Under the pieces are notes generated by a model. It did not search any database and was not told the DNA's origin. It saw only the letters and a list, made by a program, of their open reading frames with translations. DNA of 64,000 nt from an uncultured Gemmatimonadales bacterium (GTDB lineage: Bacteria; Gemmatimonadota; Gemmatimonadetes; Longimicrobiales; RSA9): positions 4,672,001 through 4,736,000 of the forward strand of contig OY970192.1 in the NCBI GenBank assembly GCA_963708135.1, given 5' to 3'. A program made the position numbers and the translations under genes. This document shows, piece by piece, positions 20,996-37,111 of this stretch. Each line of letters begins with the position of its first letter. Within the stretch, counting starts at the first letter, position 1.

Positions 20996-22486
20996 ATGCC
21001 GAGCCCCGCCTTCGACCACTTCGTCCGCCTCGCCGCGGGCGCCCGGCTCGTGCCGGTCTGGCGCGAGATCCTCTTCGACACGGACACGGCGGTCACCGCC
21101 TACGCCAAGCTCGCGCGGCCGCCCTTCGGCTTCCTGCTCGAGTCCGTGGTCGGCGGGGAGAAGTGGGCGCGCTACACCTTCCTGGGCACGAGCCCGCGCG
21201 CCGCCTGGCGCCTCCAGGCCGGCCGCCTGACCAGCAGCTGGACGCCCGCGGCCGGCTGGAGCGAGGCGCGCCGGGTCGAGGATCCGCTCGGCGAGCTCGA
21301 CGACCTCCTGCGCGCGCACACCATCGCCGACGTGCCGGGGCTGCCCCGCTTCATCGGCGGCGCCGTCGGCTACCTCGGCTACGACGTGGTGCGGACGCTC
21401 GAGCGGCTGCCCGACGCGCCGCCGGATCCGCTGGAGCTGCCCGAGGCGCTGCTCCTCTTCACCGACACCGTCCTGGCCATCGACAACGTCTTCGGGAAGG
21501 CGCTCGCCGTGGCGACGGTGGACACCCTCGGGGCCGACGCCGGCGAGCTCCGGCGCCGCTACGACGCCGCCGCGCAGCGCCTCGAGACGCTCGTGCGCAC
21601 GCTGCGCGACGCGCCTCCGCCGCCCGCCCTCCAGCCCAGCGCCGGAGCCGAGCCGAGCTTCCACAGCAGCTACACGCGCGAGCGCTACCAGGCCGATGTC
21701 GAGCGCATCCGCGAGTACATCCTCGCCGGCGACGCCTTCCAGGTCGTCCTCTCGCAGCGCCTGGAGCTCCCCCTCGATGCCGCCCCCTTCGACGTCTACC
21801 GCGCGCTCCGCTCCCTCAACCCCTCTCCCTACCTCTACTTCCTCGAGCTCGACGGCGTCTCCCTCGTGGGCTCCTCCCCCGAGGTCCTCGTCCGCGTCGA
21901 GGACGGCCGCGCCACCGTCCGGCCGATCGCCGGCACCCGGCCGCGAGGCGCCACCGAGGCCGAGGACCTCGCGCTCACCCGCGAGCTCCTCGCCGACGAG
22001 AAGGAGAGAGCCGAGCACCTCATGCTCGTCGACCTCGGCCGCAACGACGTCGGCCGCATCGCCCGCTTCGGCTCCGTCCGCGTAAGCGAGTTCATGGCCG
22101 TCGAGCGCTACAGCCACGTCCTCCACATCGTCAGCCAGGTCGAGGGCGAGCTGCGCCCCGGCCTCTCCGCCATGGACGTCTTCCGCGCCTGCTTCCCCGC
22201 CGGCACCGTCAGCGGCGCACCCAAGATTCGCGCGATGGAGATCGTCGATGAGCTCGAGCCCGTCCGGCGCGGCCCCTACGCCGGAGCCGTCGGCTACTTC
22301 TCCTACGGCGGCGCGAGCATGGACACCGCCATCGCCATCCGCACCCTCGTCGCCGCTGGCGGCCGGGCCTTCGTGCAGGCCGGCGCCGGCATCGTCGCCG
22401 ACAGCATCCCCGAGCGCGAGTACGAGGAGACGCTCGCCAAGGCCCGGGCGCTCCTGCGCGTGCTCGGATCGCTGCGGAGGGAGTAG
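20996..22486 (+). CDS. trpE: Anthranilate synthase component I
   Basis: FLLESVVGGEKWARY, GDAFQVVLSQR, NPSPY, GSSPE, PIAGTRPRG, KERAEHLMLVDLGRND, PAGTVSGAPKIRAM. Confidence 0.93.
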   Translation: MPSPAFDHFVRLAAGARLVPVWREILFDTDTAVTAYAKLARPPFGFLLESVVGGEKWARYTFLGTSPRAAWRLQAGRLTSSWTPAAGWSEARRVEDPLGELDDLLRAHTIADVPGLPRFIGGAVGYLGYDVVRTLERLPDAPPDPLELPEALLLFTDTVLAIDNVFGKALAVATVDTLGADAGELRRRYDAAAQRLETLVRTLRDAPPPPALQPSAGAEPSFHSSYTRERYQADVERIREYILAGDAFQVVLSQRLELPLDAAPFDVYRALRSLNPSPYLYFLELDGVSLVGSSPEVLVRVEDGRATVRPIAGTRPRGATEAEDLALTRELLADEKERAEHLMLVDLGRNDVGRIARFGSVRVSEFMAVERYSHVLHIVSQVEGELRPGLSAMDVFRACFPAGTVSGAPKIRAMEIVDELEPVRRGPYAGAVGYFSYGGASMDTAIAIRTLVAAGGRAFVQAGAGIVADSIPEREYEETLAKARALLRVLGSLRRE

Positions 22487-22525
22487 AGGCCCGCGTGCGG
22501 GCAGGTGTGGGCGGCGGGGCGGAGC

Positions 22526-22574
22526 GAATTCGAATCCAGCGGCCGCAGGCCGCGGAATCCGAATCCGAATCCGG
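22526..22574. repeat. Hexamer element, copy 2 (inverted)
   Basis: GAATTCGAATCC ... (GAATCC)x3 at 22555-22572. Its reverse complement closely matches 18349-18390. Confidence 0.75.
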
Positions 22575-22840
22575 CTGTTGCCGCCGTGACAGGTGCGTCA
22601 GGCCTCGAGGCCGTCTCGCCACCCCGAGCCCCGAGCCCCGAGCGATTCTGTAACACGACCGACGGCCGGAGCGAATCTGTCACATTTCCCCGACCTTGCA
22701 CGTTATGGCAGCGATGCTTCCGGCTGCCACCACCGTACTGGATGCCGCGCGGTCCGCCCCGCGCGGCGGCGGCCACAGGGGCTGGGCCGGGGGGCGAGAG
22801 GGCTCGGAACGGGCGCGGCCACGTCCCTTTCGAGCCAGGA

Positions 22841-22877
22841 CGGGTTTCTTGACAGGGCTGGAAACCCGCGCTACTCT
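22841..22877 (+). promoter_or_regulatory. Sigma70 promoter of the TonB-receptor operon with overlapping palindromic operator
   Basis: TTGACA (22849-22854), 17 nt, TACTCT (22872-22877). The -35 is bracketed by the inverted repeat CGGGTTTC (22841-48) / GAAACCCG (22861-68). Confidence 0.65.
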
Positions 22878-23031
22878 CGACCCGGCTTTGCCTCTTCTTG
22901 CCGGAAATCGCAGCTCGCGACAGGGCCCTGGTCACGGAGCCGTCCGCCGCCGCACAACGGGGGACGTTCGAACTCCGGGCCGGAGTCATTTCGGGACGTC
23001 AGTTCCAAGTTCACTCGACTGGAGGGACCGC

Positions 23032-26000
23032 ATGCGCATCTCAGTTCGGGGCACCGGGCCTCTGGCCTCCCTCGTTCTGCTGCTCCTGGGCCTGGCCATG
23101 CCGGCGGGCGCACAGCAGACGACGGGGAAGGTGCAGGGTCGCGTGACCGACGTGGGTGGCCAGCCCCTGGCAGGGGTGCAGGTCATCGTGGTCGGGACGG
23201 GTCTCGGCAACCTTACGGATCAGCAGGGCTTCTACTTCATCAACAACGTGCCCGCGGGCGTGCAGGACATCCAGGCCCAGTTCATCGGATACCAGACGAC
23301 GACGGTGCAGGGCCAGCGGATCACGGCCGGCTACACCACGACCGTGGACTTCAAGCTGGCCCAGCAGGCGGTGGCGCTCAAGGCGATCACGGTCCAGGGC
23401 GAGCGCAACCCGCTGGTGCCGCGCGACAAGACGGTCTCGGGCTCGATCGTGACCGGCGACATCGTGCGCCAGCTGCCCGTGGACAACGCGAACGCCGTGA
23501 TCGCCCTCCAGCCGGGCGTGATCAGCTACGGCGGGCAGTTCGTGATCCGCGGCGGCCGGCCGGGCGAGGCTTCGGTGTACGTGGACGGCGTGCTGGTCCG
23601 CAACTTCGACCGCGGTGAGCAGGGCAACGTGAGCGTGGACCTGAGCGGGCTCGAGGAGGTCAACGTCCTCACGGGCGGCTTCGGTGCCCAGTACGGGCAG
23701 GCGCAGTCCGGGGTGATCAACTACGTCACGCGGACCGGCGGCACGCGCACGAGCGGCGCCTTCAACTTCGGCACGGACGAGTGGGCGCCGAACAGCGAGC
23801 GGTGGGGGTGGAGCGTCCTGCACGCGAACATCGACGGGCCGCTGGTGAAGAACCTCCTGACCTACCAGATCGCGCTGGGGGCGCAGGGCATGCGCGACCG
23901 GAGCCCGCAGTTCACCGACATCGCCGGCCCCGAGGGGATTCCGGTCCAGCAGCACTACTTCCGGCCGACCGGCATGCAGGCGCTGGCGGGCGGCGATTCC
24001 GCCATGAGCTACGAGGAGATCACCGGCCTCGGGCCGCGCCGGCCGTACAACAACGGCGACGTCTACAACGCCACCGCCGGCCTGCGCTTCAGCCCGAGCA
24101 GCTACACCAAGATCACGGTGACCGGTGTGGCCGGCCGCAGCCAGGGGCTGAACTTCAACTCCGGCTACCAGTTCCGGCCGTGGTCGTTCGGCGCCTACCG
24201 CAACACCAGCGACCTGGCGCGCGTCGGCCTCGAGCAGATCCTCTTCCAGAGCGCCAACAGCCAGGCGGTGCTCCGGATCAATGCCGCCTATCAGAACGAC
24301 CAGCACCGCAGCGGCGTGCGCGCCGACACCACCGGTCTCGAGCCCTCCGGCCCGGACTTCCTCGGCTTCCGCTTCAGCAACTACAAGCTGATGTTCGAGA
24401 ACGTGACCCCGGAGATGTTCCTCACGCGCGTCAACTCGATCCGCGCGGGTGCCAGCGCCCTGCCGTTCTATCCGGCCTACACGCTCGACTGCGGCGGCCA
24501 CCCGTGCACCAAGGCGGAGGCCACGGACAGGTTCAACGGCGTGAACGGCACCGACACGCCCTACGGAATCCTCGGCCCGAGCCCGTTCAGGACGACCGGC
24601 TTCGGCGACGGCCTCTACTACTCCGGCGAGAAGACTTATAGCCTGGACGCCAGCCTCGACCTGCAGGCCGGCCGCTTCAACCGCATTGGCGCCGGCGTCC
24701 AGTACTACAAGAAGAACGTCGGCCACATCAGCGTCAGCAACTACAACACCACCTTCCAGGACGTCTACGCCGTCAAGCCGACGATCGGCGCCGGCTACCT
24801 GACGGATCGCCTCGACCTGGGCGAGATGGTGCTCGACCTGGGGCTGCGCCTCGACTACTACTCGAGCGACGCCAAGTACCCGGCCGCGCCCGGCGTCGTC
24901 TACCCGTTCGAGCCCGACGCCTCGACGCTGCAGTACTGCGAGTCGCCGCCGCCGGCCGGCCAGATCACCTGCACGCCCAAGCTGATCGGCCAGGACAACC
25001 TCTGGAACCTGAGCCCGCGTCTCGGCGTGGCGTTCCCGATCAGCGACGCGACGAACTTCCGCCTGAGCTACGGGCACTTCTTCCAGCTGCCCTCCTTCGT
25101 CAACCTCTACGATGGCATCAATACCGACCTCAACTCGACGAACACCAACCAGCTCTACGGCCGGCCCATCCCGGCCATGCGCACCGTGCAGTTCGAGGTC
25201 GGCGTGACGCACCTGTTCAACCCGACCACGGTGCTCGACGTAACGGCGTACAACAAGAACAAGCAGGCCGACGCCACCTACCGCATCCAGAACTTCAACC
25301 TGCCTCCGTCCTACGGCGGGCCGACCGACATGCGCGTCCTCACCAACCTGGACTTCGGCGCGGCCAAGGGCGTCAACGTCCGCCTGACGCGCCGCTACGG
25401 CCAGTTCTTCACGGCGATCCTGTCCTACAGCTTCCTGGACTCCAAGGACACCGGCTCCGATCCGACCAGCTACGTCTACACTTTCGGCCGCTTCACGGAC
25501 CCGGTGACCGGCGCGGCGCTCTCGCCCGCGCAGGCAATGCAGAACACGGACTTCGACATCAACCACCAGTTCACCATCGAGAGCACGGCCAACCTCGGCA
25601 AGGACGTGCTCAGCGGCACCGGCTGGAACCCGCTGCTCCGCAACACCAACCTGTCTCTCACCTTCCTCGCGCACAGCGGGCTGCCGTGGACGACCTCGAG
25701 CAGCGTGGGCGCCAGCGGCACCGGCGGCAGCGGCGCGCGCTTCACCGAGCTCCAGAACTCCTCGCGGATGCCGTGGTTCTCGAACGTCGATGGCCGCTTC
25801 ACGCGCGGCTTCACCCTGGCCGGCAGCCGGCTCGCGGCGTACCTCGAGGTCCGCAACATCCTGAACACCCGCAACATCACCAATGTCTACGGCTACACGG
25901 GCTCGCCCACGAACCCCGGCGCCCCGGCGGTGCTCACCGCCGAGCTGTGGAACGGGACGCCCAGCGGCCCCCTCGACGTCGGGACCGGAACGGCCTCCGA

Positions 26001-26187
26001 GCAGCTCCAGAAGCAGCGGCAGCAGCAGATGCTCGCCGTGTACGGGCTCGCGGACGCGGACCCGAGCACGCTCAGCGTGGCCGAGCAGAAGAACATCGGG
26101 CTGCTCCAGTACGTGAACACGCTCGGGCTGCCGGGCAACTACAGCGCGCCGCGCCGCTGGCGGCTCGGCATCGAGTGGACGTTCTGA
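23032..26187 (+). CDS. TonB-dependent receptor with N-terminal carboxypeptidase-regulatory-like domain
   Basis: GGAGG RBS + ATG 23032, signal peptide, TGKVQGRVTD, plug motifs IRGGRPGE..YVDGV and EVNVLTGGFGAQYG..SGVIN, SPRLGVAFPI, C-terminal LGIEWTF. Confidence 0.93.
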   Translation: MRISVRGTGPLASLVLLLLGLAMPAGAQQTTGKVQGRVTDVGGQPLAGVQVIVVGTGLGNLTDQQGFYFINNVPAGVQDIQAQFIGYQTTTVQGQRITAGYTTTVDFKLAQQAVALKAITVQGERNPLVPRDKTVSGSIVTGDIVRQLPVDNANAVIALQPGVISYGGQFVIRGGRPGEASVYVDGVLVRNFDRGEQGNVSVDLSGLEEVNVLTGGFGAQYGQAQSGVINYVTRTGGTRTSGAFNFGTDEWAPNSERWGWSVLHANIDGPLVKNLLTYQIALGAQGMRDRSPQFTDIAGPEGIPVQQHYFRPTGMQALAGGDSAMSYEEITGLGPRRPYNNGDVYNATAGLRFSPSSYTKITVTGVAGRSQGLNFNSGYQFRPWSFGAYRNTSDLARVGLEQILFQSANSQAVLRINAAYQNDQHRSGVRADTTGLEPSGPDFLGFRFSNYKLMFENVTPEMFLTRVNSIRAGASALPFYPAYTLDCGGHPCTKAEATDRFNGVNGTDTPYGILGPSPFRTTGFGDGLYYSGEKTYSLDASLDLQAGRFNRIGAGVQYYKKNVGHISVSNYNTTFQDVYAVKPTIGAGYLTDRLDLGEMVLDLGLRLDYYSSDAKYPAAPGVVYPFEPDASTLQYCESPPPAGQITCTPKLIGQDNLWNLSPRLGVAFPISDATNFRLSYGHFFQLPSFVNLYDGINTDLNSTNTNQLYGRPIPAMRTVQFEVGVTHLFNPTTVLDVTAYNKNKQADATYRIQNFNLPPSYGGPTDMRVLTNLDFGAAKGVNVRLTRRYGQFFTAILSYSFLDSKDTGSDPTSYVYTFGRFTDPVTGAALSPAQAMQNTDFDINHQFTIESTANLGKDVLSGTGWNPLLRNTNLSLTFLAHSGLPWTTSSSVGASGTGGSGARFTELQNSSRMPWFSNVDGRFTRGFTLAGSRLAAYLEVRNILNTRNITNVYGYTGSPTNPGAPAVLTAELWNGTPSGPLDVGTGTASEQLQKQRQQQMLAVYGLADADPSTLSVAEQKNIGLLQYVNTLGLPGNYSAPRRWRLGIEWTF

Positions 26188-26196
26188 GACTTCCCA

Positions 26197-26227
26197 GCGG
26201 TGGCCGGGCTGCACGCCCGGCCACCGC
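26197..26227 (+). other. Intergenic 13-bp GC stem-loop (no U tail)
   Basis: GCGGTGGCCGGGC-TGCAC-GCCCGGCCACCGC between the receptor stop and the next RBS. Confidence 0.7.
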
Positions 26228-26248
26228 CATTCAAGGAGAAACTCCGAC

Positions 26249-29200
26249 ATGAGGCCAATTGTGAATGCGGCGATGCGGCTGGCTAAGCGCGTGCTCGCGG
26301 GCGGCGTGCTGGTGGCGGCGCTCGCCGGGCCGGCGGCCGCGAAACCGGGGAAGCCGGGGAAGCCGAACCCGAAGTCCCCGTTCAACCTGAACGCGGCCAC
26401 GACCACCCTGCTCAACGGCAACGAGTGGTCGTGCGGCCTGGACAATCTGGGCGACATCTGCGTCAACCCGGCCGGCAGCTCGGTCGGCGGCGGCGGCTGG
26501 TGGCCGCAGGGCACGCAGAACCAGTACATCTTCAACACCGGGCTCCAGCTCGGTGCCATCGTCGGTGCCGACGGCGGCGCCTGGGCCGGGGACACCATCG
26601 CGGACCACTTCTTCGACGCGTACGGCGCCTTCAACTCCGGCGTGCCGATCACCAACATCTTCCTGTCGAGCGACCCGGCCGACCTCGACTCCTGGCCGCA
26701 GGACTGCTACCTGACCAATCCGGCCACGGGCGAGCAGGTGAAGACGCTCGGGCAGTTCGACAGCTGCGTTCAGTACTGGGACGCGGACCCCAAGAAGGGC
26801 TTCGCCGACGGCCACCCGATGGGCCTCAAGGTCGTGCAGCACTCGCTCGAGTGGGCGTACTCGACCAACAAGGACATCATCTTCTTCATCTTCACCTTCA
26901 CCAACGTCAGCAACGACCCCGGCTTCCTCGCCCGCGTGCCGGACGCGCCCGCCGGCGGCTTCACGCTGACCAACATGTTCGCGGCCTTCGGCGCCGACCC
27001 GGATGAATCCGCGGACGAGGCGGGCGACAACTACGCCACCGTCGTCCCCGACCAGAACATGGGCGTGAACTGGCAGTGGGACTTCTCGGCCCCGGATTTC
27101 GTGCCCTATCCGCCCAACTTCGATGCCGCTCCGGGCTTCTTCGGCGTGAAGTTCCTGAAGGGGCCGCCGAACACGGCCGACACGGCGATCATTCGCAGGA
27201 TCGGCGCGGTGGTGGATACGGTGCAGCCCGGGCAGCCGCTCGGGATGACCTTCTTCTCGGTCAACACGAACGGCGGCGCGTTCCCCGACCCGACCACGGC
27301 GCACCAGGCCTACCGGTACGTGTCCGGCCACCTGAGCGCGGCTGAGCAGCAGGCCTGCTCCCCGTTGCCCGGGGTTTGCTACGTGGACCTGGCCTCGCGG
27401 GCGGACACCCGCTTCATCGAGTCCTCCGGGCCGTTCAGCCTGAAGCCCGGCGAGTCCGCGCAGATCGTGGTGGCCTACGTCGCCGGCGCACCCGTGCCGG
27501 GCACGTACGTGAAGGGCACGCCGATCCCGATCGGCAGCGTCGCCGACACCACGCGGCCGATCGAGAAGGTGATGGGGCGGGGCTACGACCAGCCGTTCCC
27601 GAGCCTCTTCACCAACGCCCGCAACGCGCAGGCGATCTTCGACGCCGGCTTCATCCTGCCGGGCGCGCCGCCGCCGCCGAACGTGACCGTCGTCCCGGGC
27701 GACCACCAGAACACGGTCATCTGGGATGCCGCGCCCGTAAACCTGGCCGATGCGTACTACCAGATCGCGTCGCAGCAAACGATCAACGGCGAGCCGAACC
27801 CGCTCTACAACCCGGCCTACCGGGAGCACGACTTCGAGGGCTTCCGCGTCTACCGCAAGACGAGCGCGAGCGACCCCTGGACGCCGATCGCGCAGTTCGA
27901 CCTGGCGAACGGGATCACGCAGGAGGTGACGCCGCTCACGAAGGCGCTCAACCTGAATGGCGACACGATCGTGATCGTGGCCGACACGGCCAGTGTCTGC
28001 CGGGCCGGCACGGCCAGCGAGCTGGGGCTGGGCGCGAACTTCGCCGGCTGCGCGGCGGAGACCGGGCTCAAGTTCGCCATCGTCGACAAGGGCGGCCCGT
28101 TCCCCGATCCGTCCGCGGGCCCGGGGCTGGTGAACGGGCACACCTACTACTACGCGGTCACGAGCTTCGACATCAACTCGCCGCTCAGCGGCCCGAGCTC
28201 GCTCGAGTCCGCGCGCGTGCTGTCCAACGAGGCCGCCGGAACCCCGCGCGCGAATGCGGCCGGCTTCGTGGCGGCGGATGTGTCGGCACCGACCCTCATG
28301 GGCGGTGGAAAGGCGCTGGACCCGAGCGCGACTGTGACCATCGACCCCTCGGCGGGGACCTTCTCCGGCCCGCAGCCCGCGAGCAACGGTCTCAACATCA
28401 ACCTGGACGTGTACGACCCGGCGGCGATCCCGCAGGGTAACTTCTCCGCCGCCATCGATTCGGTGATCCCGATCAACGATGCGGGCGTGACCTTCGTCGG
28501 CGGCCACACAATGACCTCCGGCGGCAATGCGCTGGGCGCGGCCACGATCTACTACTCTACCGTGACCACGCCGGACACGAGCTACCAGGTCCGGACGGAG
28601 GTCCAGAGTCCGTTCGGCTACTACACGGCCGGCGAGGCGAACGTCGACATTGCGAACGCGCCGGTGGCCGGAAAGGGCACGAACCACTACGCGGGCAACC
28701 TGCACGCTTGGTTCGACTACGGCTCGCAGATCTACAACTCCGGCTCGGAGGCGGTAGGCTGGCTGCGCGCCGGGCAATGGCCGGATGGTTCCGGCGGCTC
28801 GCGCTGGTTCTCCGGCTCGCCGGAGGCCAACCCCACGCTGGCGCAGGCGGCAGGCAGCCTGCCCGGTGTGGACTCGATCGTCAACCTGGCCAGCCAGTAC
28901 GGCGCCAACGCCAACCTGCGTTGGCAGGTCTACCTGATGTTGACCGTGTATCACGCGGCGGACTATGAGATCACCTGGGGCGACAACGGCTCGATCAGTC
29001 AGGTGATGGATCTGTCGAACAACACGGAGGTCCAGTTCAACCCCGAGTTCCGGGGCGGGACGTGGGGCTTCCTGCCGGACGGCTCCGGTGACGGGATCCT
29101 CTCGTTCGGCGACTTCTGGACCATCAGCCCGCTGGCCGAGTGGTGGTGCGCGCCGGACGTGAACTGCATTCCATTCGCGCAGCTGAAGCAGACGGCGACC

Positions 29201-29797
29201 ATCATGCCGATCTCGATGGCGCCGCCCTCGGGCTACAACCTCGACACCTCGGGCTCCGACGCCACAGGCTTCGGCCTCTACATCGGAGGCGAGGAGTACC
29301 TGTTCAAGACGAGCTCGCTGCCGACTTCGGGGACGAAGTGGGTGCTGCGCACCTACGAGGGCAAGGTCGCGCAAGCCGATGATGGGACGTACTCGTGGTC
29401 GGCCAATACGCTCCGTTCGCCGACAGTCCCCGGGCTGTCCGCGCAGGTGTCGGTCAATGCCGCGGCCACCGTTGACCTGGCTACGGCCGACCTGAGCAAG
29501 GTGCACACGGTTCCGGACCCGTACTACGTGACGAACACGCTGGAGACCAACCAGCTGCAGAAGAAGCTGATGTTCGTCAACCTGCCGCCGCAGGCGATCA
29601 TCCGGATCTACTCGCTGTCCGGGACGCTGATCGCGGTCGTGAACCACGACGACCCGTCCGGCGGCGGGCAGGAGTTCTGGGACCTGCGTACCCGTAACCA
29701 GCAGTACGTGGCGAGCGGCGTCTACTTCTACCACGTGGAAGCGCCGGACGGGAAGACGAAGGTCGGCAAGTTCACCGTCATCCAGTACGCCCAGTAA
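26249..29797 (+). CDS. Large secreted beta-rich protein with FN3-like segments and a C-terminal FlgD-Ig / T9SS-CTD-like domain
   Basis: AAGGAG RBS, signal peptide, PPPPNVTVVPGD, DFEGFRVYR, NGHTYYYAVTSFD. C-terminus VPDPY..MFVNLP..IRIYSLSGTLI..WDLRTRN..VASGVYFYHV..GKFTVI. Confidence 0.85.
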   Translation: MRPIVNAAMRLAKRVLAGGVLVAALAGPAAAKPGKPGKPNPKSPFNLNAATTTLLNGNEWSCGLDNLGDICVNPAGSSVGGGGWWPQGTQNQYIFNTGLQLGAIVGADGGAWAGDTIADHFFDAYGAFNSGVPITNIFLSSDPADLDSWPQDCYLTNPATGEQVKTLGQFDSCVQYWDADPKKGFADGHPMGLKVVQHSLEWAYSTNKDIIFFIFTFTNVSNDPGFLARVPDAPAGGFTLTNMFAAFGADPDESADEAGDNYATVVPDQNMGVNWQWDFSAPDFVPYPPNFDAAPGFFGVKFLKGPPNTADTAIIRRIGAVVDTVQPGQPLGMTFFSVNTNGGAFPDPTTAHQAYRYVSGHLSAAEQQACSPLPGVCYVDLASRADTRFIESSGPFSLKPGESAQIVVAYVAGAPVPGTYVKGTPIPIGSVADTTRPIEKVMGRGYDQPFPSLFTNARNAQAIFDAGFILPGAPPPPNVTVVPGDHQNTVIWDAAPVNLADAYYQIASQQTINGEPNPLYNPAYREHDFEGFRVYRKTSASDPWTPIAQFDLANGITQEVTPLTKALNLNGDTIVIVADTASVCRAGTASELGLGANFAGCAAETGLKFAIVDKGGPFPDPSAGPGLVNGHTYYYAVTSFDINSPLSGPSSLESARVLSNEAAGTPRANAAGFVAADVSAPTLMGGGKALDPSATVTIDPSAGTFSGPQPASNGLNINLDVYDPAAIPQGNFSAAIDSVIPINDAGVTFVGGHTMTSGGNALGAATIYYSTVTTPDTSYQVRTEVQSPFGYYTAGEANVDIANAPVAGKGTNHYAGNLHAWFDYGSQIYNSGSEAVGWLRAGQWPDGSGGSRWFSGSPEANPTLAQAAGSLPGVDSIVNLASQYGANANLRWQVYLMLTVYHAADYEITWGDNGSISQVMDLSNNTEVQFNPEFRGGTWGFLPDGSGDGILSFGDFWTISPLAEWWCAPDVNCIPFAQLKQTATIMPISMAPPSGYNLDTSGSDATGFGLYIGGEEYLFKTSSLPTSGTKWVLRTYEGKVAQADDGTYSWSANTLRSPTVPGLSAQVSVNAAATVDLATADLSKVHTVPDPYYVTNTLETNQLQKKLMFVNLPPQAIIRIYSLSGTLIAVVNHDDPSGGGQEFWDLRTRNQQYVASGVYFYHVEAPDGKTKVGKFTVIQYAQ

Positions 29798-29805
29798 AAC
29801 CGGAT

Positions 29806-29831
29806 CCGGGGGCGGGGCGGCCCGCCCCCGG
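29806..29831 (+). other. Intergenic 11-bp GC stem-loop
   Basis: CCGGGGGCGGG-GCGG-CCCGCCCCCGG just before the AGGAGG RBS of the porV-like gene. Confidence 0.7.
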
Positions 29832-29848
29832 GTCAACAGGAGGAGACC

Positions 29849-30925
29849 ATGAGGAAGGTACTGAAGAGCGGCGCGCTCGCCGGCCTGGCCCTGCTCTGCG
29901 CGGGATTGCCGCTCCGCGCGCAGGGGACGCAGCCGGAGAACAACATCCCCTACGGCACGCGCGGGGGCGAGTTCCTGCTCCTGCCGGTCGGGGGCCGGGG
30001 CACGGCCATGGGGATGGCGTTCGATCCGCTGGCGAACGACGTCACGGCCATGTTCTGGAATCCGGCCGGGCTCTCGCTCATGCCGGGGGCGGGCGCGGAG
30101 GTGAGCCGGATCAACTACCTCGCGAACACGAGCTTCACCTGGGCCGGGCTCGCGATGCCGATGGCCGGTGGCGACGTGGCGATCGGGCTGCAGATCGGCG
30201 TGTTCGGCTTCTCGGACCAGCCGGTCTACACCGTGGACCAGCCGGACGGGACCGGGCAGACCTACTCCGTGTCCGACACGTATGTCGGCGCGACGTACTC
30301 GCAGCAGTTCAACGAGCGGTTCAGCTTCGGCGCCACGGCCAAGTTCATCAACGAGAGCCTGGCGAGCGCGCACGCGTCCACGGTCGGCGCCGACTTCGGC
30401 GCGAACTACCACGCCCGGATCGGCGGCCGGATGATCCGCGGCTCCTTCACCGTCACGAACATCGGCGGCACGCTGAAGCACAGCGGGCCGGCGCTGGACA
30501 CGACGCTCACGGGAGGCTCGGCGGTCGAGTTCCGGACGAAGGGCTTCGAGCTGCCGTCGTCGTTCCGGGTGGGGCTCGCCTACGATCTCCTGAACTCGTC
30601 GAGCAACCGGCTGACGGCCTCGGGCGAGTTCCTCCAGCCGACGGCCGCCGACATCAGCGGCGCCTTCGGCGCGGAGTACGCGCTGAGCCACGTGGGCGGG
30701 AGCGGCTTCAACGCTGCGCTGCGCGGCGGCTGGAACATGCAGACCGACAAGGGGTTGGATGTAGCCGGGTCGACGATGAACGGCGCCGGCAACGCCGGTC
30801 TCGCGTTCGGGCTCGGCGTCGGTTACGACTTTTCCAAGACGAGTTCCTTCGGATTCGACTACGCCTGGCGGAGCGCGGGGCTGCTCGGGAACGAGAACCT
30901 GTTCAGCCTGAACGTGCACTGGTAG
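29849..30925 (+). CDS. PorV/PorQ-family (UPF0164, FadL-like) outer-membrane beta-barrel
   Basis: Signal peptide, FLLLPVGGRGTAMG..A..ND..AMFWNPAGL motif, amphipathic strands, FDYAW, C-terminal aromatic W. Confidence 0.85.
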   Translation: MRKVLKSGALAGLALLCAGLPLRAQGTQPENNIPYGTRGGEFLLLPVGGRGTAMGMAFDPLANDVTAMFWNPAGLSLMPGAGAEVSRINYLANTSFTWAGLAMPMAGGDVAIGLQIGVFGFSDQPVYTVDQPDGTGQTYSVSDTYVGATYSQQFNERFSFGATAKFINESLASAHASTVGADFGANYHARIGGRMIRGSFTVTNIGGTLKHSGPALDTTLTGGSAVEFRTKGFELPSSFRVGLAYDLLNSSSNRLTASGEFLQPTAADISGAFGAEYALSHVGGSGFNAALRGGWNMQTDKGLDVAGSTMNGAGNAGLAFGLGVGYDFSKTSSFGFDYAWRSAGLLGNENLFSLNVHW

Positions 30926-30963
30926 CAGACGGGTCCGAGGGTCCAGCACCCGAGGAGTCACAG

Positions 30964-32406
30964 ATGGAGCAGGTAACGCGGGCATCGGAGCTGGGATGCC
31001 GCGTTCGCCGCGCGGGCAGGTGGCTGGCCGTTCTCACGGCCGCCACCTGCCCGTTTGGCGCGGCGGTCGCAGCGCAGCAGCCCAGCGGGCTGACCGTCAA
31101 GACCTACCGTTTCTGGCGGCCCCACGACATCACGATGGTCGAGACGTACGCCAACGTGCCGTGGCGGGCGCTCACCTTCGCGCAGGCCGGCGCCCAGGCG
31201 ACCGCCCACTTCGAGACGACCCTCGAGGTGAAGGATGCACAAGGCACCGTGCTGGCCACGCAGTCGTGGGCCGACTCGGTGCGCGGGGCGGCGCTCTCGA
31301 GCGCCGGGATGATGCGGGCGAGCTCGATCGAGCACGGCACGCTGAACCTCAAGCCGGGCCGCTACGTGTTCACGATGCGGGTGAAGGACACGGCCAGCGG
31401 AAAGGTGGTCTCCGGCGTCGATACGGTGGAGGCGTTCGCGAGCGAGCCGCGCCACAGCGACCTGGTGGTGGCGGCGTCGATCGCGTCGCTGTCTGCGGAT
31501 TCCGCGGCGCCGGCCGCGGCGCTGCGGCGGGGCGAGCTCGTGGTGCTGCCGAACCTGGAGGGCGCCGTGACGGCCGAGCAGCCGAACGTGCCCCTCTTCG
31601 CTGAGCTGTACAACTCCGCCGCGCAGCCGGAGACGGCGCAGGCGGTGGTGCGGATCACGAGCGACGCCGGGTTCCACCACGAGACGCCGCCGCGCGTCCG
31701 CATCGTGGAGCCGGGGATCGGCGTCGAGGCGCTGGCCATGAACCTGACCGGGCTCCCGCCCGGCGACTACGAGCTGCACCTCGAGTGGAAGTATGCGAAC
31801 GAGACCGCGGCGGCGGGGCAGCCGATCCGCATGCTGCCGATGGGCGCGGGCGAGGTCACGCTGGCGGCCCCGGATGCATACGACGCCATGGACGTCGCCC
31901 AGCTCGACAGCGTCTTCGGCCCCCTGCGTTACGTGGCCACGGACGACGAGAAGGCGGCCTTCGACCTGGCCAAGGACGCGGGCTCGAAGCGCAGGGTGCT
32001 GCGCGAGTTCTGGACCGCGCACGCCAAGGCCGCGGGGGAGGCGCCGGCTGAGTTCAAGTCGGAGCTCGAGGAGCGAGTCCAGTACGTGAACCGCAACTTC
32101 CGGCCGCCGGCCGCCCGGAACCGGAAGAAGCCGGTGCAGGGGTGGCAGACGGATCGTGGCCGCATCTACATCATGCTCGGGGCCCCGGCCGACAAGATGG
32201 TCTCGCAGGAGCGGGGCGGCGCCCTCACCAGGCGCTGGGAGGCGTGGAAGTATGCCCAGGGCCGCGGCGACATCTACCTGTTCGTGGACGTCTCCGGGTT
32301 CGGCCGCTACGAGATGCTGTACACGACGAACCCCTACATTCCGTCGGATCCGAGCTGGCAGAACTACCTCGGCCGCGAGGACCTGCAGCGGCTGCAGGCG
32401 TTCTAG
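30964..32406 (+). CDS. GWxTD domain protein (secreted)
   Basis: REFW...ERVQYVNRNF...GWQTDRGRIYIMLGAPA...WEAWKY...YLFVD. Ig-like N-terminal part. GAGGAG RBS. Confidence 0.88.
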   Translation: MEQVTRASELGCRVRRAGRWLAVLTAATCPFGAAVAAQQPSGLTVKTYRFWRPHDITMVETYANVPWRALTFAQAGAQATAHFETTLEVKDAQGTVLATQSWADSVRGAALSSAGMMRASSIEHGTLNLKPGRYVFTMRVKDTASGKVVSGVDTVEAFASEPRHSDLVVAASIASLSADSAAPAAALRRGELVVLPNLEGAVTAEQPNVPLFAELYNSAAQPETAQAVVRITSDAGFHHETPPRVRIVEPGIGVEALAMNLTGLPPGDYELHLEWKYANETAAAGQPIRMLPMGAGEVTLAAPDAYDAMDVAQLDSVFGPLRYVATDDEKAAFDLAKDAGSKRRVLREFWTAHAKAAGEAPAEFKSELEERVQYVNRNFRPPAARNRKKPVQGWQTDRGRIYIMLGAPADKMVSQERGGALTRRWEAWKYAQGRGDIYLFVDVSGFGRYEMLYTTNPYIPSDPSWQNYLGREDLQRLQAF

Positions 32407-32446
32407 GCGCGCGGGGGCGCGGGGCTCAGGGCTCGGAGAAAGGGAA

Positions 32447-32476
32447 GGGTGGGGCGGACCGCCGTCCGCCCCACCC
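32447..32476 (+). other. Intergenic 13-bp GC stem-loop
   Basis: GGGTGGGGCGGAC-CGCC-GTCCGCCCCACCC. Confidence 0.7.
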
Positions 32477-32489
32477 GTGTATCAGCAGG

Positions 32490-34538
32490 ATGATGGCACG
32501 TTCCCGCAGCGCGCTCGCCGCGCTCGTCCTCCTCCTCGGCGCCGCCGCCCCCACCCTCGCCCAGTCCCCGCCGGACAGCGCCCGGGCCCGTGCGCAGTAC
32601 GAGCGCGGCGTGGCGCTCCTGGCGAAGGGCGACGCGCACATCCCCTCGCCGGGCGACATCCTGCGCGGCCTCACCTTCTGGCAGGACTTCCTCTCTGCGA
32701 TCGGCAGGGACCACGTGGCCGGCGCCCGGCGCGCGTTCGGGGCGGCCCTCGAGGCGGACCCGGCGTTCGCCCCCGCGGCCGTCGAGCTGGGCAAGCTGGC
32801 GCTCGCCTCGCGCGACCCGGACGACCTGGCCGGGGCCGCCGCCGCGCTGGACCGGGTGGCGGCCGCGCCGGACGCGACGGCCGAGACGCTGCGCCTCGCG
32901 TCGGAGGTCGCGCTCGCGGTCGGAGACAGCGCGGCCGCGGGCGCGCGGGCGCGGGCGTACGCGACGGCGCCCGGGCGCGACGCGTCGCTTGCGGGCCTCG
33001 ACCTCGCGCGCGCGGAGCTGGAAGCCGGGCGGGCCGCCGAGGGCTGGGCCGCCTACACGGCGGGGCTCGACTCGCTGACCGACGCCGGAGCGGACGCCTA
33101 CCTCGCCGACCTTGGGCCGCTCTCCGAGGACGCGAGCGCCGCGGACTGGCAGAGCCTCCCGCTCGGCGGCAGGGCCACGTGGCTGCGCCACTACTGGGTG
33201 GCCCGCGCCGCGGCGGCGGGGCGCACCCCCGCCGCCGTGCTGACGGAGCACGAGCGGCGGCTGCGCTTCGCGCAGCAGCATTATCCGCGGACCAGCCGGC
33301 GGGCCGTGACCGCGGCGACGCCGGACGCGGTCGCCCACGCCGTCGCCTCCGGGCTCGACGACCGGGGCATCCTCTACGTCCGCCACGGCGCGCCCGACCG
33401 AGTCGTGCGCACGCCGGTATCCGGGTGCGCGCCCCACGAGAGCTGGCTCTATCAGGCCGACGGCGGTCCCCTCATCTACCACTTCGTGTCGCTCAACCGC
33501 GCCAACGAATACGTGCTCGTGGCCGACCCCCTTGCCGGCTGCGGCGATGGCAGCGCGCGCGCCCGGGAGCTCGGGGCGCTCGCGGACCTCGACGGCCGCT
33601 ACGCCGCCCTCGAGGCGCAGGCGAACCTGGCCGGTGTGGGCGGCACGCGCAGCGTCGCCGAGGAGTTCAACACCGATCTCGCCAGGCTGGTCACGGAGCG
33701 GCGGGGCGAGGCGATCGAGGGCCTGAGGGAGAGCGGCTACAGGCCGCGGGCGAAGGACGTGGTCTCGTTCTACTACGACACGTACGCGTTCCGCGGCGCC
33801 TCGGGACGGACGGACCTCGTGGCGGCGCTCGCCATACCGGGCGGCGCGCTCCGCGGCCGGGAGGCCGGACAGGGTGTGCGCTACGCCGCCGACGTCGCCT
33901 TCGCGGTGCTGGACACCGTCACCGCCGGTACCTGGCAGTCGGACACCACGCTGGACTTCATGGCGCCGCGCGCCTTCGGGGCGCGGGAGAACCTGCGGGT
34001 CGCCGTCGAGCTGCCGGTGCCGCCCGGCCGCGCCTACGCCGACCGCGTGAGCGTGCGGTTGCCCGGGCAGGACGCGGAGGGCGGCTACGGCGGCGCGCTC
34101 GCCGTGCCGAGCTTCCGCGGGGACACCCTGATGGTGAGCGACCTCGTGCTGGCGGAGCCCGCCGGCCACGGCTGGCGCCGCGGCGGCGTGGAGCTCGGTC
34201 TGGTCCCGCCCCGGCAGTACACGCGCGGGCCGATCTCTCTCTTCTACGAGCTCTACAACCTGCGGGCGGACTCCACGTACACGACCCGGATCCGCGTCAT
34301 CTCGCTCGGCGGAAAGGATCTGTTCGGCGCGCTGAAGCGGCTCTTCACCGGCGGCGGCGCCGCTCTCTCGGTCTCGTTCCGCGACGTGGCGCACCCCCGC
34401 TCCGACGGCACCGTGCAGGTGCTGCGGCACGTGGACCTCGGCCAGCTCTCGCCTGGCGCGTATCGGATGGAGGTCGAGACCCGCTCAGGCGGGCGGACGG
34501 TGCGGAGGGAGACGGAGTTCCTGGTCAGGAAAGAATAA
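32490..34538 (+). CDS. TPR + degenerate GWxTD domain protein (secreted)
   Basis: Signal peptide, TPR-like helices (ALEADPAFAPA), EHERRLRFAQQHY, GLDDRGILYVRHGAPD, ESWLY, then SDLVLA / FYELYNL / LSPGAYRMEV Ig-like C-terminus. Confidence 0.8.
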   Translation: MMARSRSALAALVLLLGAAAPTLAQSPPDSARARAQYERGVALLAKGDAHIPSPGDILRGLTFWQDFLSAIGRDHVAGARRAFGAALEADPAFAPAAVELGKLALASRDPDDLAGAAAALDRVAAAPDATAETLRLASEVALAVGDSAAAGARARAYATAPGRDASLAGLDLARAELEAGRAAEGWAAYTAGLDSLTDAGADAYLADLGPLSEDASAADWQSLPLGGRATWLRHYWVARAAAAGRTPAAVLTEHERRLRFAQQHYPRTSRRAVTAATPDAVAHAVASGLDDRGILYVRHGAPDRVVRTPVSGCAPHESWLYQADGGPLIYHFVSLNRANEYVLVADPLAGCGDGSARARELGALADLDGRYAALEAQANLAGVGGTRSVAEEFNTDLARLVTERRGEAIEGLRESGYRPRAKDVVSFYYDTYAFRGASGRTDLVAALAIPGGALRGREAGQGVRYAADVAFAVLDTVTAGTWQSDTTLDFMAPRAFGARENLRVAVELPVPPGRAYADRVSVRLPGQDAEGGYGGALAVPSFRGDTLMVSDLVLAEPAGHGWRRGGVELGLVPPRQYTRGPISLFYELYNLRADSTYTTRIRVISLGGKDLFGALKRLFTGGGAALSVSFRDVAHPRSDGTVQVLRHVDLGQLSPGAYRMEVETRSGGRTVRRETEFLVRKE

Positions 34539-34611
34539 CGAACAGGCACACAAGGCCGGCGGCGGGAGCCGGTCGAGTGCCGGTTTTCCATTCGGCGAGG
34601 GGCGCCGCCGT

Positions 34612-35967
34612 TCATCCGTTCTTTCCGTTCTCGCCGCGCCTGCAGGCGGCGAGGCCCTCGAACAGGCGATCGAACTGCTCGGGCCGGTGCGCGGCGGTGG
34701 CGCAGAGGCGCAGGCGCGCGAGTCCCGGCGAGACGGCGGGGTAGGTCACGGCGGAGACGAACACGCCGCGCGCCAGGAGCTGGCGGGCCCAGTGGTAGGC
34801 GCGCCATTCGTCGCCGAGCAGGACGGGGATGACGGGTGTCGTCGAGGGGCCGGTGGGCAGCCCCAGCTCGCGCAGGCCGTCGCGCAGCCGGCGGCTGTTC
34901 TCGTGCAGGCGGCGCACGTGCTGCGGCTCGTCCTGGATGATCCGGATCGCCTCGAGCGCCGCGGCGGCGTTGGCGGGCGTCATGGCGGCGGAGAAGATGT
35001 AGGGGGCCGAGCCGTGCTGGATGTAGATCCTGAGCGGCAGCGAGCCCGCCACGAAGCCGCCGGAGGAGGGGATGGCCTTGGAGAGGGAGCCGGTCAGGAT
35101 GTCGATGGAGGTGGGGTCGATGTCCTGGGCCTCGCAGATGCCGCGGCCGGTAGCGCCCACGGCGCCGATGGAGTGGGCCTCATCGACGAGGAGGAAGGCG
35201 CCGTAGCGGTCCTTGAGGGCGATGAGATCGGCGAGGGGCGCCTCGTCGCCATCCATGCTGAAGACGGAGTCCACGGCGACGAGGATGCGACCCTCGCCCT
35301 TGTTGCGGGCCTGGCGCAGCCGTCGCTCGAGGTCGGCCATGTCGTTGTGGCGGAAGCGGTGCGTGCGGCAGCCGGCCATGCGCACTCCATCCTGGATGCT
35401 CTGGTGCGCATACTGGTCGAGGAGCGCGAGGTCGTCCGGTCCGAACAGCGAGGTGATGGCGGCCACGTTGGCGTCGTAGCCGGAGGCGAAGGTGGCGGTG
35501 GCCTCGTGGCCGAGGAAGTCGGCCAGGGCGCGCTCGAGCTCGAGGTGGAGCTGGAGCGTGCCCGTGAGCAGGCGCACGCCTCCCGTCGAGGTCCCGTAGC
35601 GCTCGACGGCCTCCTTCACGGCCGTGGCGAGACGAGGATGCCCGATGAGCCCGAGGTAGCTGTACGAGGAGAACATCACGAAGCCGGTGCCGAGCGCCTC
35701 GCTCTCGGGGCCGGCCGCGCGGGAGAGCGGCACCTGGTACGTGTAGAGCGACTCCGGCAGGCCGGCGGCGAAGAGGTCGAACCACCGCCGTACGTTGGCG
35801 GTGTCGAGCAGGGAGCCCGGCTCGATCAGCGTATCGACGCTCTTCCCCTCGAAATAGCCGAGGAACGGGTCGCGTGTGAAGTCGTCGAGGCGCTCAGCCG
35901 CCGGGCCGGAACGCGACTTTGATGGAGCCGTGGCCGCCCTTGTCGAGAGCGGCTCTGATCGCGGCAC
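34612..35967 (-). CDS. PLP-dependent alpha-oxoamine synthase (BioF/SPT/KBL family)
   Basis: MFSSYSYLGL, FASGYDAN, FRHNDM, DSVFSMDGD, VDEAHS, GSLSKA. GGAGGA RBS before GTG 35967, overlapping the upstream ADH by 74 nt. Confidence 0.9.
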   Translation of the reverse strand: MPRSEPLSTRAATAPSKSRSGPAAERLDDFTRDPFLGYFEGKSVDTLIEPGSLLDTANVRRWFDLFAAGLPESLYTYQVPLSRAAGPESEALGTGFVMFSSYSYLGLIGHPRLATAVKEAVERYGTSTGGVRLLTGTLQLHLELERALADFLGHEATATFASGYDANVAAITSLFGPDDLALLDQYAHQSIQDGVRMAGCRTHRFRHNDMADLERRLRQARNKGEGRILVAVDSVFSMDGDEAPLADLIALKDRYGAFLLVDEAHSIGAVGATGRGICEAQDIDPTSIDILTGSLSKAIPSSGGFVAGSLPLRIYIQHGSAPYIFSAAMTPANAAAALEAIRIIQDEPQHVRRLHENSRRLRDGLRELGLPTGPSTTPVIPVLLGDEWRAYHWARQLLARGVFVSAVTYPAVSPGLARLRLCATAAHRPEQFDRLFEGLAACRRGENGKNG

Positions 35968-37111
35968 GATAGTCCTCCAGGGCGAAGACGTGGGTCAGCA
36001 TGCCGAGCGCCTCGAGGCGGTCCCGCCTCATGAGCTCGAGGGCGGCATCGTAGATGTCGGTGTCGCGGCCGCCGAACGGGGCGAGCCCGTACGCAAAGAC
36101 GCCCGCCACGGTGATCTGTCGGTACCACACCCGGGTCCAGTCCACGGCCAGCTTCGCCGCGGCGCCCACCAGGACGAGGCGGCCCGCCTCGCGGACGAGG
36201 GCCAGCGCGTCGCCGGCCGTCCGCTGCGTCCCGACCGTGTCGTAGACCAGCGACGGTCCACCCTCGACGAAGCGCGGCGCCAGCGTGGGCCGGTAGGCGC
36301 GGGCATCCGGCAGCGCGGCGGCCCACGCGTAGACCTCCTCGCGGGTGGAGAAGATCGGCCCCGCTCCCGCCCGCTCGGCCAGCGCCCGCTGCGCCGGATG
36401 GCGCGCGAGCACGGCGACCGGGCCCGTAAAGCCCGTGAGGCGCAGCGCCTTCACCGTGAGCGCCCCAATGCTGCCGGCGCCGATCACCAGCACGACATCG
36501 TCTTCCGCGGGCGGGTGCAGCAGCACCGGCCGAAGCGCCGAGACGAACGGGTCCGCCAGAACGGCCGCCTCCTCGGGCAGCTCCCCGGTACGGTGCAGCT
36601 GGCTGCGGTGCGCCACGAAGGAGGCCGACCAGCCGCCGCCGACGGCGGGGCAGTAGCCGATCATCGGTCCGGTGCCAATGGCGCCGTCGGTGGTGCGGCG
36701 GCAGAGCCCGTACTCGCCGCGGCCGCACGCGGGGCAGACCGGATCGAGCCCTCGCTGGGCGCAGGCGAGCATCGGGTTCACGATCACCGCGTCGCCCGCC
36801 CGCCACTCGCCCGCCGCGCTCCCCGCCTCCGCCACCCGTCCGATGTTCTCGTGGCCGAAGGTGAAGGGATAGGCGCCGAAGGGCTCGAGCGTGAACGAGT
36901 CGTGCGCCGTTACGGCGGCAAGGTCGCTGCCGCAGATCCCGCTGAGCGTGGTCTCGATCCGCACCCAGTCCGGGCCGGGCAGCGCGGGCGGATCCACCTC
37001 GTCGAACGTCACGCAGCCGAGCGGGCCCAGCGCCATGCCGGGGCGGTGGCGAGCGGTCCAGCGGGTCCACAGATACCGCACCGGCCGGTAGTGGAATCGG
37101 ATCGCCCGCAT
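35894..37111 (-). CDS. Zinc-dependent alcohol dehydrogenase (MDR, TDH-like)
   Basis: SGICGSD, FGHE, C..C..C..C structural zinc site, IGAGSIG. ATG 37111. Confidence 0.9.
   Translation of the reverse strand: MRAIRFHYRPVRYLWTRWTARHRPGMALGPLGCVTFDEVDPPALPGPDWVRIETTLSGICGSDLAAVTAHDSFTLEPFGAYPFTFGHENIGRVAEAGSAAGEWRAGDAVIVNPMLACAQRGLDPVCPACGRGEYGLCRRTTDGAIGTGPMIGYCPAVGGGWSASFVAHRSQLHRTGELPEEAAVLADPFVSALRPVLLHPPAEDDVVLVIGAGSIGALTVKALRLTGFTGPVAVLARHPAQRALAERAGAGPIFSTREEVYAWAAALPDARAYRPTLAPRFVEGGPSLVYDTVGTQRTAGDALALVREAGRLVLVGAAAKLAVDWTRVWYRQITVAGVFAYGLAPFGGRDTDIYDAALELMRRDRLEALGMLTHVFALEDYRAAIRAALDKGGHGSIKVAFRPGG

Follow-up and report, generated by a model that had tools for sequence, protein, structure and literature searches.

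A TonB-dependent receptor, a cargo with a type IX-like sorting tail and a PorV/PorQ-family barrel form a conserved gene trio in Gemmatimonadota: a candidate surface-capture unit

Introduction

In the PorZ-PorQ and PorU-PorV pairs of Porphyromonas gingivalis, a protein exported through the T9SS (type IX secretion system) keeps its C-terminal domain (CTD) and is held on an outer-membrane barrel of the PorV/PorQ family. For PorZ and PorQ, it has been proposed that a cognate PorV-like barrel keeps the tail uncleaved (PMC10202324), and a type A tail has been solved in complex with the loops of PorV inside SprA (PMC10994853; PDB 8gl6 and others). In the SusC/SusD (RagA/RagB) systems of Bacteroidota, the gene of a TonB-dependent transporter is followed by that of an extracellular partner, and many paralogues occur, often near glycan genes. 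Type B CTD substrates of Flavobacterium johnsoniae have a dedicated PorP/SprF-like barrel gene beside the substrate gene (PMC10202324), and in Myxococcus xanthus the large non-SusC TonB-dependent barrel Oar is tied to the secreted protein PopC (PMC6434023). Here we analyse a locus in a stretch of 64,000 nucleotides of an uncultured Gemmatimonadales bacterium (assembly GCA_963708135.1, contig OY970192.1, positions 4,672,001 to 4,736,000), to which we refer as the window. The locus encodes a TonB-dependent receptor (gene 1), a protein that we call the cargo (gene 2), a PorV/PorQ-family barrel (gene 3) and two GWxTD proteins (genes 4 and 5). Genes 1 to 3 are referred to as the trio.

The locus shares features with each of these systems. 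As to PorZ and PorQ, the highest score of the cargo tail is that on the C-terminus of PorZ, and the barrel does better on PorQ than on PorV models; retention of the tail on the barrel would be as in the P. gingivalis pairs. In contrast to PorZ, however, the passenger of the cargo is a beta super-sandwich without a match to the PorZ body, and the pair is usually encoded after a TonB-dependent receptor, is present in multiple copies in some genomes and occurs in Gemmatimonadota. Unlike for PorU-PorV, no PorU was found in the class to which the window belongs. The trio resembles SusC/SusD in that a transporter gene is followed by the gene of a putative extracellular partner, and in its many paralogues, often near glycan genes. 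Yet its receptor fails the SusC/RagA model, and the partner is neither a lipoprotein nor SusD-like; it would be delivered by the T9SS and held by a third protein, the barrel, while contacting the receptor. As for type B substrates, a barrel gene lies beside the substrate gene, but here the barrel is of the PorV/PorQ family and the tail is type-A-like. Finally, the receptor is a large non-SusC barrel tied to a putatively secreted protein, as Oar is to PopC, but the cargo has a Sec signal, a T9SS tail, its own barrel and, judging from co-occurrence, a dependence on SprA.

We propose that the trio is a TonB-dependent uptake unit with a surface capture protein that is delivered by the T9SS and tethered to its barrel, and we give this reading a probability of about 0.5. 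No published account of the module was found in the literature on PorV-like barrels, on TonB, SusD and CTD proteins in the FCB group (Fibrobacteres, Chlorobi and Bacteroidetes), or on the T9SS in Gemmatimonadota. A literature search likewise found no paper mentioning 'GWxTD'.

Results

Conservation of the trio

A scan of one genome per species returned at least 582 relatives of the cargo, of which we compared the best 64 loci, with 66 cargo copies. These loci are titled Gemmatimonadota, except for one 'uncultured bacterium' and one 'archaeon' bin. Among the copies with enough flanking DNA to judge, 40 of 54 have a receptor gene of the same strand directly upstream of the cargo gene, and 46 of 55 have the barrel gene directly downstream. 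At 41 of 52 loci, a GWxTD gene comes next after the barrel gene. The receptor was missed in L067 and L068 through an artefact of the gap window used for counting. Among the exceptions, the cargo gene stands alone in L027, L031, L058, L072 and L073, has the barrel gene but no receptor gene beside it in L037 and L066, and has the receptor gene but no barrel gene in L065. The same order in dozens of other genomes places the arrangement far beyond chance.

The order is retained in a distant family of the phylum, f10, whose genomes carry 7-14 barrel copies each. We picked ten loci of this family (L091-L100) by adjacent matches to cargo-like and barrel genes, regardless of the receptor. All 11 copies at these loci, two of which stand in tandem in L095, read receptor, cargo-like gene, barrel. 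The cargo-like proteins align to the cargo of the window mainly in their C-terminal part. A GWxTD gene was found beside none of the 11 copies, which implies that the conserved unit is the trio and that the GWxTD genes are an add-on of some lineages. Six of the ten loci adjoin sugar-related genes (melibiase, GH38, acetyl-xylan-esterase-like, ROK, PIG-L and GFO/IDH/MocA). Two adjoin sigma-54 activators.

Other neighbours recur in particular lineages. In family f4, a gene for an M24 peptidase lies directly upstream of the module at 29 loci, with a divergent sigma factor gene beyond it at 22 loci, and a PPC-domain protein is encoded directly downstream of the GWxTD gene. We considered the M24 peptidase and the PPC-domain protein as evidence for a substrate and rejected them, because both are absent beside the module of the window. 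The contig in the 'archaeon' bin (L077) carries receptor, cargo and barrel genes in the order of the module, and its barrel gene is not followed by one for a GWxTD protein. This contig is probably bacterial and misbinned.

The cargo and its sorting tail

The coordinates of the genes and their main features are listed in Table 1. The cargo matches no Pfam family. Its AlphaFold model (predicted local distance difference test, pLDDT, 80.4) is almost all beta, with a beta super-sandwich at residues ~43-540 (26375-27868) and further beta domains after it. This super-sandwich resembles the domains that GH15, GH94 and GH116 enzymes have at their N-termini and that are not catalytic (VIA-align Z 17-19, root-mean-square deviation 3-4 A, ~240-280 residues). 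The likeness is confined to the N-terminal sandwich; no catalytic (alpha/alpha)6 barrel was recognised after it, in a fold search that barely reached beyond residue 640. Among 8000 scored candidates, 346 were homologues of the cargo at E<=0.001, and those named by their source are Gemmatimonadota or its orders.

Table 1. Coordinates of the features of the locus, as positions in the window, with the evidence for each
Feature	Position	Strand	Evidence
Gene 1, TonB-dependent receptor, 1051 amino acids (aa), signal peptide (by eye)	23032..26187	+	Pfam hits
Gene 2, cargo, 1182 aa, signal peptide (by eye), no lipobox (by eye)	26249..29797	+	Open reading frame (ORF), AlphaFold model
T9SS type-A-like C-terminal sorting domain of the cargo, residues ~1085-1182	29501..29797	+	TIGR04183, PorZ C-terminus, Foldseek
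Gene 3, outer-membrane barrel of the PorV/PorQ family and cognate partner of the cargo, 358 aa	29849..30925	+	NF033709
Gene 4, GWxTD protein, 480 aa, signal peptide (by eye)	30964..32406	+	TIGR04514, PF20094, structure model
G+C-rich hairpin in the gap from gene 4 to gene 5, perfect over 13 bp	32447..32476	.	Terminator-like scan, sequence, fold
Gene 5, long GWxTD paralogue, 681-682 aa, signal peptide (by eye)	32490..34538	+	Profiles, BLASTP

A first-pass annotation of the sequence had assigned a T9SS-type CTD to the cargo. This assignment is borderline: on TIGR04183 (cut-off 23), the tail scores 25.0 bits in the six-frame search of the genome and 19.9 bits on the protein itself. The last ~70 residues match the C-terminus of PorZ (27.5 bits, E 1e-6). 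The match is limited to these residues, and the cargo fails the PorZ equivalog model NF052228 (27.5 bits versus a cut-off of 260). Foldseek also matched the C-terminus to the PorZ structure 5m11 (143 columns, 20% identity). In the family alignment, the PDP and SGVY motifs and T1176 are invariant within the tail. The source genome has two matches to TIGR04183 in total.

The barrel and its predicted binding of the tail

The barrel scores 136.4 bits on the PorV/PorQ family model NF033709 (cut-off 90), covering model positions 2-325 of 326. Hence, it is a PorV-like barrel, as had been supposed, rather than an ordinary FadL transporter. It stays below the cut-offs of both equivalog models (PorQ NF033711, 70.5 versus 220 bits; PorV NF033710, 36.4 versus 250 bits) and is nearer to PorQ. 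A profile of the barrel family finds the solved PorV of F. johnsoniae (6h3i_F) with an E value of 3.9e-13.

We predicted the complex of barrel residues 25-358 with cargo residues 1080-1182, using custom alignments and three controls. The interface score ipSAE was 0.89, 0.90 and 0.89 for the pair, compared with 0.01 for the best control; at least 82% of the contacts were common to the runs, and the partner pLDDT was at least 81. The pass mark of this prediction is reached by 116 of 157 solved complexes and by 2 of 215 mismatched pairs, counts that are approximate given the custom alignments. Contacts include N32, G36, E41, F119-F121, Q124, P125, Y139 and V141 on the side of the barrel, and H1086-P1091, R1119, G1125, L1127, S1156-V1158 and T1176 on the side of the cargo. 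In both families, the residues in contact show no or almost no variation. Binding of the cargo tail to the barrel is thus predicted with high confidence, and an interface of the kind anticipated from the sequence was obtained.

Four further, weaker PorV-family barrels are encoded in the source genome. One of them (76.5 bits on the PorV/PorQ family model; 63.8 on the PorQ model) belongs to a second pair of cargo and barrel genes at ~4604860-4608970 (- strand), in which its gene comes directly after that of a subtilisin-like protease of 1042 aa. This pair is followed by a GroES-like gene and a heptosyltransferase gene, and none of the ORFs scanned next to it looked like a receptor gene.

Co-occurrence of cargo, barrel and SprA

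We used a sample of 151 Gemmatimonadota genomes, each at least 90% complete, to study how the components are distributed over the phylum. The tallies include the unpublished genome G053. The class of the window contributes 136 of these genomes and the families f10-f12 contribute 15. Related genomes are not independent, so that the co-occurrence counts overstate the strength of association.

SprA was above its cut-off in 120 of the 151 genomes. The cargo profile matched 75 genomes, 48 of them strongly, and the barrel profile matched 73 (E<=1e-20). Each of the 75 genomes with the cargo and each of the 73 with the barrel had SprA, and cargo or barrel occurred in none of the 31 SprA-negative genomes. 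Conversely, 45 of the 120 SprA-positive genomes had no cargo match and 47 had no barrel. The barrel was found in 47 of the 48 genomes with a strong cargo match, and only two of the 73 barrel-positive genomes lacked a cargo match. The barrel therefore tracks the cargo rather than SprA, and the two are inherited together. As SprA-positive genomes without the cargo are, apart from the two exceptions, also without the barrel, the barrel is the partner of the cargo and not a general PorV-type carrier.

The source genome encodes SprA at 3.24 Mb, in a gene of 2146 aa (481-483 bits) that lies 1.46 Mb from the module. As described earlier, the window contains no sprA; the suggestion that the genes form a self-contained cassette or a minimal export route fails, because the genome encodes SprA and because cargo and barrel occur only in SprA-positive genomes. 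In at least two dozen genomes of family f4 (e.g. L086/L087 of G055 and L088/L089 of G118), sprA and the module share a strand and are 10-25 kb apart. We read this proximity as synteny and rejected it as a functional cluster, because housekeeping genes (CtaA, an amino-acid permease, nadB/nadC, LptF/G) lie in between and sprA of the source genome is far from the module.

Other T9SS components were less readily recognised. PorU (NF033707) was above the cut-off in 14 of the 15 genomes of f10-f12, and in the 15th it is split over two contigs. With these genomes as positive control, PorU was above the cut-off in none of the 136 genomes of the window's class (18.3 bits versus 420 in the source genome). 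The tail of the cargo is therefore probably kept, as no known sortase that could remove it was found in this class. In the source genome, GldK scored 34.6 bits versus a cut-off of 350. Peptidase_C25 was unmatched there, by a model without a match in the control genomes either, and the PorP/SprF family was unmatched by a model without a positive control. The source genome thus falls short of a complete T9SS of the Bacteroidota type: SprA is present, the GldL and GldM models of the PorL/PorM motor, neither of which had a positive control, were unmatched, and PorU was below its cut-off.

The receptor

The receptor has an N-terminal CarboxypepD_reg domain (PF13715/PF13620), a plug (PF07715) and a large barrel (PF00593). 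The models of the plug (41.9 bits, cut-off 23.9) and of the barrel (53.4 bits, cut-off 27) were passed, in agreement with the initial assignment as a TonB receptor. The plug is preceded by 'KAITVQG', a putative TonB box judged by eye. No close solved relative was found, and structure matches were at plug level solely, at E 2e-5.

On the SusC/RagA model TIGR04056, the receptor scores 32.9 bits versus a cut-off of 368.25, with only residues 33-165 covered, whereas a true SusC-type receptor elsewhere in the same genome scores 442 bits. Its profile scores thus place the receptor outside the SusC/RagA subfamily. The source genome has 14 matches to SusD_RagB (PF07980), at least one of them directly after a SusC-type receptor. 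All lie outside the window, where the absence of SusD had been noted before. SusC/SusD pairs elsewhere in the genome imply that the trio is a parallel, SusD-less design.

The GWxTD proteins

Gene 4 is a canonical GWxTD gene, as first described, with 69.1 bits on TIGR04514 (cut-off 28) and 37.7 bits on PF20094 (cut-off 26.9). In its structure model (pLDDT 87.2), two immunoglobulin-like beta-sandwiches (residues 44-157 and 168-290) precede an alpha/beta GWxTD domain (residues 311-479; 31894-32400). In whole-model searches with Foldseek and VIA-align, the sandwiches (residues 41-298) matched PDB entries at Z 9-11 (Foldseek, wide VIA-align) and the GWxTD domain drew no PDB match. A search of the ESM Atlas with residues 300-480 returned GWxTD clusters alone.

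The open frame of gene 5 runs from 32142, but its real start is the ATG at 32490/32493 (681 aa in the call of the collection). The protein has an Ala-rich TPR-like helical region, a divergent GWxTD domain (GLDDRG; ~32991-33521) and a beta-sandwich region (~33789-34526). Hence, it consists of the same pieces as gene 4 in permuted order, as the reciprocal profile matches indicate. The degenerate GWxTD domain claimed for it is recognised by a profile of 35 GWxTD proteins of the module (60.5 bits, E 4.9e-17), but not by TIGR04514, on which it scores 24.2 bits, and its TPR-type matches are weak. BLASTP aligned the proteins of genes 5 and 4 with 30% identity over 169 aa (E 4e-4). A word-indexed search had returned two relatives of gene 5. 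This was an artefact of sensitivity, as a full HMMER scan counted 1078 representatives with E<=0.001 and 151 with E<=1e-30, most of them 700-800 aa long.

The first-pass annotation had treated gene 5 as a member of the cassette. The nearest relative, whose genome is the only other one in the window's family, shows synteny between the hydantoinase and aminotransferase genes; its orthologue of gene 5 (39% identity) occupies the corresponding position in inverted orientation. Of the 64 other loci, only L077 has a gene of this type nearby, on the opposite strand. The hairpin upstream of gene 5 ends 13 nt before its start and has no U-tract on the + strand; the fold of 32400-32495 has a free energy of -50.2 kcal/mol (z -2.9). 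The inverted orthologue, the rarity elsewhere and the hairpin together imply that gene 5 is a linked neighbour in this family and not a conserved member of the operon. It is a lineage-specific long GWxTD paralogue and may form a separate transcription unit.

GWxTD domains were found in 132 of the 151 genomes, and 19 of the 31 SprA-negative genomes are among these. Where cargo and barrel were both missing, the median was one match per genome, with three or more in 10 of 74; where both were present, it was four, with three or more in 61 of 71. The copy numbers of barrel and GWxTD were correlated (Spearman 0.74; kin genomes are not independent). The occurrence in SprA-negative genomes points to a wider role that does not depend on SprA, and further paralogues multiply together with the trio. 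A role of GWxTD specific to the module, as suggested earlier, is thus not upheld, all the more because no GWxTD gene adjoins the distant trios. The protein of gene 4 is probably a Sec-exported, periplasmic factor of a broader family that is loosely tied to the trio.

A 'core' GWxTD paralogue lies at 4627299-4628720 of the source genome, and most genomes retain it, whether or not they have SprA. It stands in conserved synteny, in genomes without the trio too, with polA, a Ser/Thr kinase gene and, in places, a gene of a TPR-SLT lytic transglycosylase (L101-L108). We considered these neighbours as a functional clue and set them aside, as they give no lead. Genomes of f10 have GWxTD-type open frames of 740-840 aa in tandem arrays, e.g. 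three in a row on G005:C110 and G002:C17, and these arrays do not adjoin the trios examined.

The locus and its surroundings

The source genome is a soil-type Gemmatimonadota genome in a single contig of 5.45 Mb with ~72% G+C, and the named relatives of the window's proteins found in homologue searches are Gemmatimonadota as well. In the ORF scan, the five genes were found on the + strand between 23032 and 34538, with intergenic gaps of 61, 51, 38 and 83 bp. The earlier description of five co-oriented genes with short gaps therefore stands, with a revised start for gene 5. The signal peptides of all five proteins were judged by eye. Long antisense frames on the - strand overlap the genes (23041-26658, 26231-30985 and 32403-34430, of 1205, 1584 and 675 aa, respectively). 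These frames are the usual artefact of ~72% G+C; the G+C content at third codon positions, 0.89-0.96 in all five genes, picks the genes on the + strand.

The upstream neighbour is trpE (20996-22486, + strand) and the downstream neighbour is an aminotransferase gene (34612-35967, - strand). At 15038-17488 (- strand), 5.5 kb upstream of the module, the window encodes a protein of 816 aa in which a TMEM260-like protein O-mannosyltransferase domain scores 124 bits. A promoter scan found no sigma-70-like sites in 22000-36000, a result that is uninformative at 72% G+C.

Discussion

We propose that genes 1 to 3 would act as one working unit. The cargo would cross the inner membrane via Sec and would leave through the SprA translocon of the genome by its type-A-like C-terminal tail, which would be taken up by the private PorV/PorQ-family barrel. 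As no PorU was found in the class, the tail would remain uncut and the cargo would stay tethered to the surface on its barrel, like PorZ on PorQ. The tethered all-beta cargo, with an N-terminal super-sandwich of a type that also adjoins glycan-active enzymes, would then serve the adjacent receptor as a partner in nutrient capture, taking the part that SusD plays for SusC, with transport directed inwards.

The part of this proposal with the best support is the pairing of tail and barrel, which would equally suit surface display only. The T9SS would then deliver an adhesin, an enzyme or a coat protein onto its own barrel, and the receptor would be a co-regulated or unrelated neighbour. The loci L037 and L066, where cargo and barrel occur without the receptor, fit this explanation, as does the pair of subtilisin-like protease and barrel in the source genome, beside which no receptor was seen among the ORFs scanned. 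However, the receptor gene is directly upstream in all 11 distant copies of f10, as well as in 40 of the 54 closer ones, and a position that is kept across very distant paralogues is hard to explain without a joint function. We therefore regard display alone as unlikely.

Several observations weigh against our proposal. The trio is incomplete around 9-14 of the ~55 cargo copies examined, and the closest orthologues of the window's trio sit among housekeeping genes and offer no clue to a substrate. The match of the sorting tail is borderline, as its scores of 19.9 and 25.0 bits lie around the cut-off of 23. A super-sandwich fold shared with other proteins by itself demonstrates no function. Since a like complex has already been solved, the pass of the tail-barrel prediction shows likeness and may reflect the predictor's memory of the solved SprA-PorV-tail complexes. 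Finally, GldL/PorL was above the cut-off in none of the 151 genomes and GldM was unmatched in the source genome, by models without a positive control, so that absence is not established and a divergent motor may exist. With no recognised PorL/GldL or GldM, the powering of SprA-dependent export is in doubt.

The contrast between SprA in 120 genomes and GldL in none also speaks for a TonB-assisted type IX step. In that case, the receptor would couple energy from TonB/ExbBD to the release of the loaded barrel or to the maturation of the cargo: the private barrel, once loaded, would be pulled from the translocon by TonB/ExbBD, and the trio would be a TonB-powered variant of type IX export rather than an importer. 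The strict link of the receptor to each cargo-barrel pair in f10 is in line with this. Yet many SprA-positive genomes lack the cargo (45 of 120) or the barrel (47), which implies that SprA does not generally depend on the receptor. Moreover, the 7-14 copies beside sugar genes resemble nutrient loci, a divergent motor may have escaped the uncontrolled GldL/GldM models, and no exbBD or tonB was found among the window ORFs scanned. On balance, we consider an export device of this kind improbable.

The two remaining alternatives dispense with a T9SS role. In Bacteroidota, a subunit of BAM (the machinery for beta-barrel assembly) has been described as a FadL homologue with 14 strands whose loops bind a surface protein (PMC12578637), so that barrel and partner might act with BAM, like BamG/BamH, as an accessory of outer-membrane biogenesis; the GWxTD proteins, which occur independently of SprA, would agree with this. 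It is nevertheless very improbable, because the barrel scores as PorV/PorQ family and matches the solved PorV, is absent from SprA-negative genomes and multi-copy in some others, and has a partner that is not a lipoprotein. Export of the cargo across the outer membrane by the receptor itself, in a self-contained cassette, has a precedent in a TonB-dependent transporter required for protein secretion (PMC6434023) and would suit a large non-SusC receptor of the CarboxypepD_reg type, but we give it hardly any credence, given the T9SS-type tail and private PorV/PorQ barrel of the cargo and the occurrence of cargo and barrel only with SprA (75 of 75 cargo-positive genomes; 0 of 31 SprA-negative ones).

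The presence of SprA, the failure to find PorU in the window's class and the unrecognised PorLM in all 151 genomes suggest that the type IX system of Gemmatimonadota is reduced or differently powered. With at least 582 relatives when one genome is scanned per species, the module is common. If our proposal is true, FCB bacteria outside the Bacteroidota have nutrient-capture units that combine a TonB-dependent transporter with a type IX-secreted binder and a private anchor of the PorV/PorQ type, and these units work without a SusD-type lipoprotein. This would widen the view of what a TonB-dependent uptake unit requires, and of the roles that PorV-family barrels may play.

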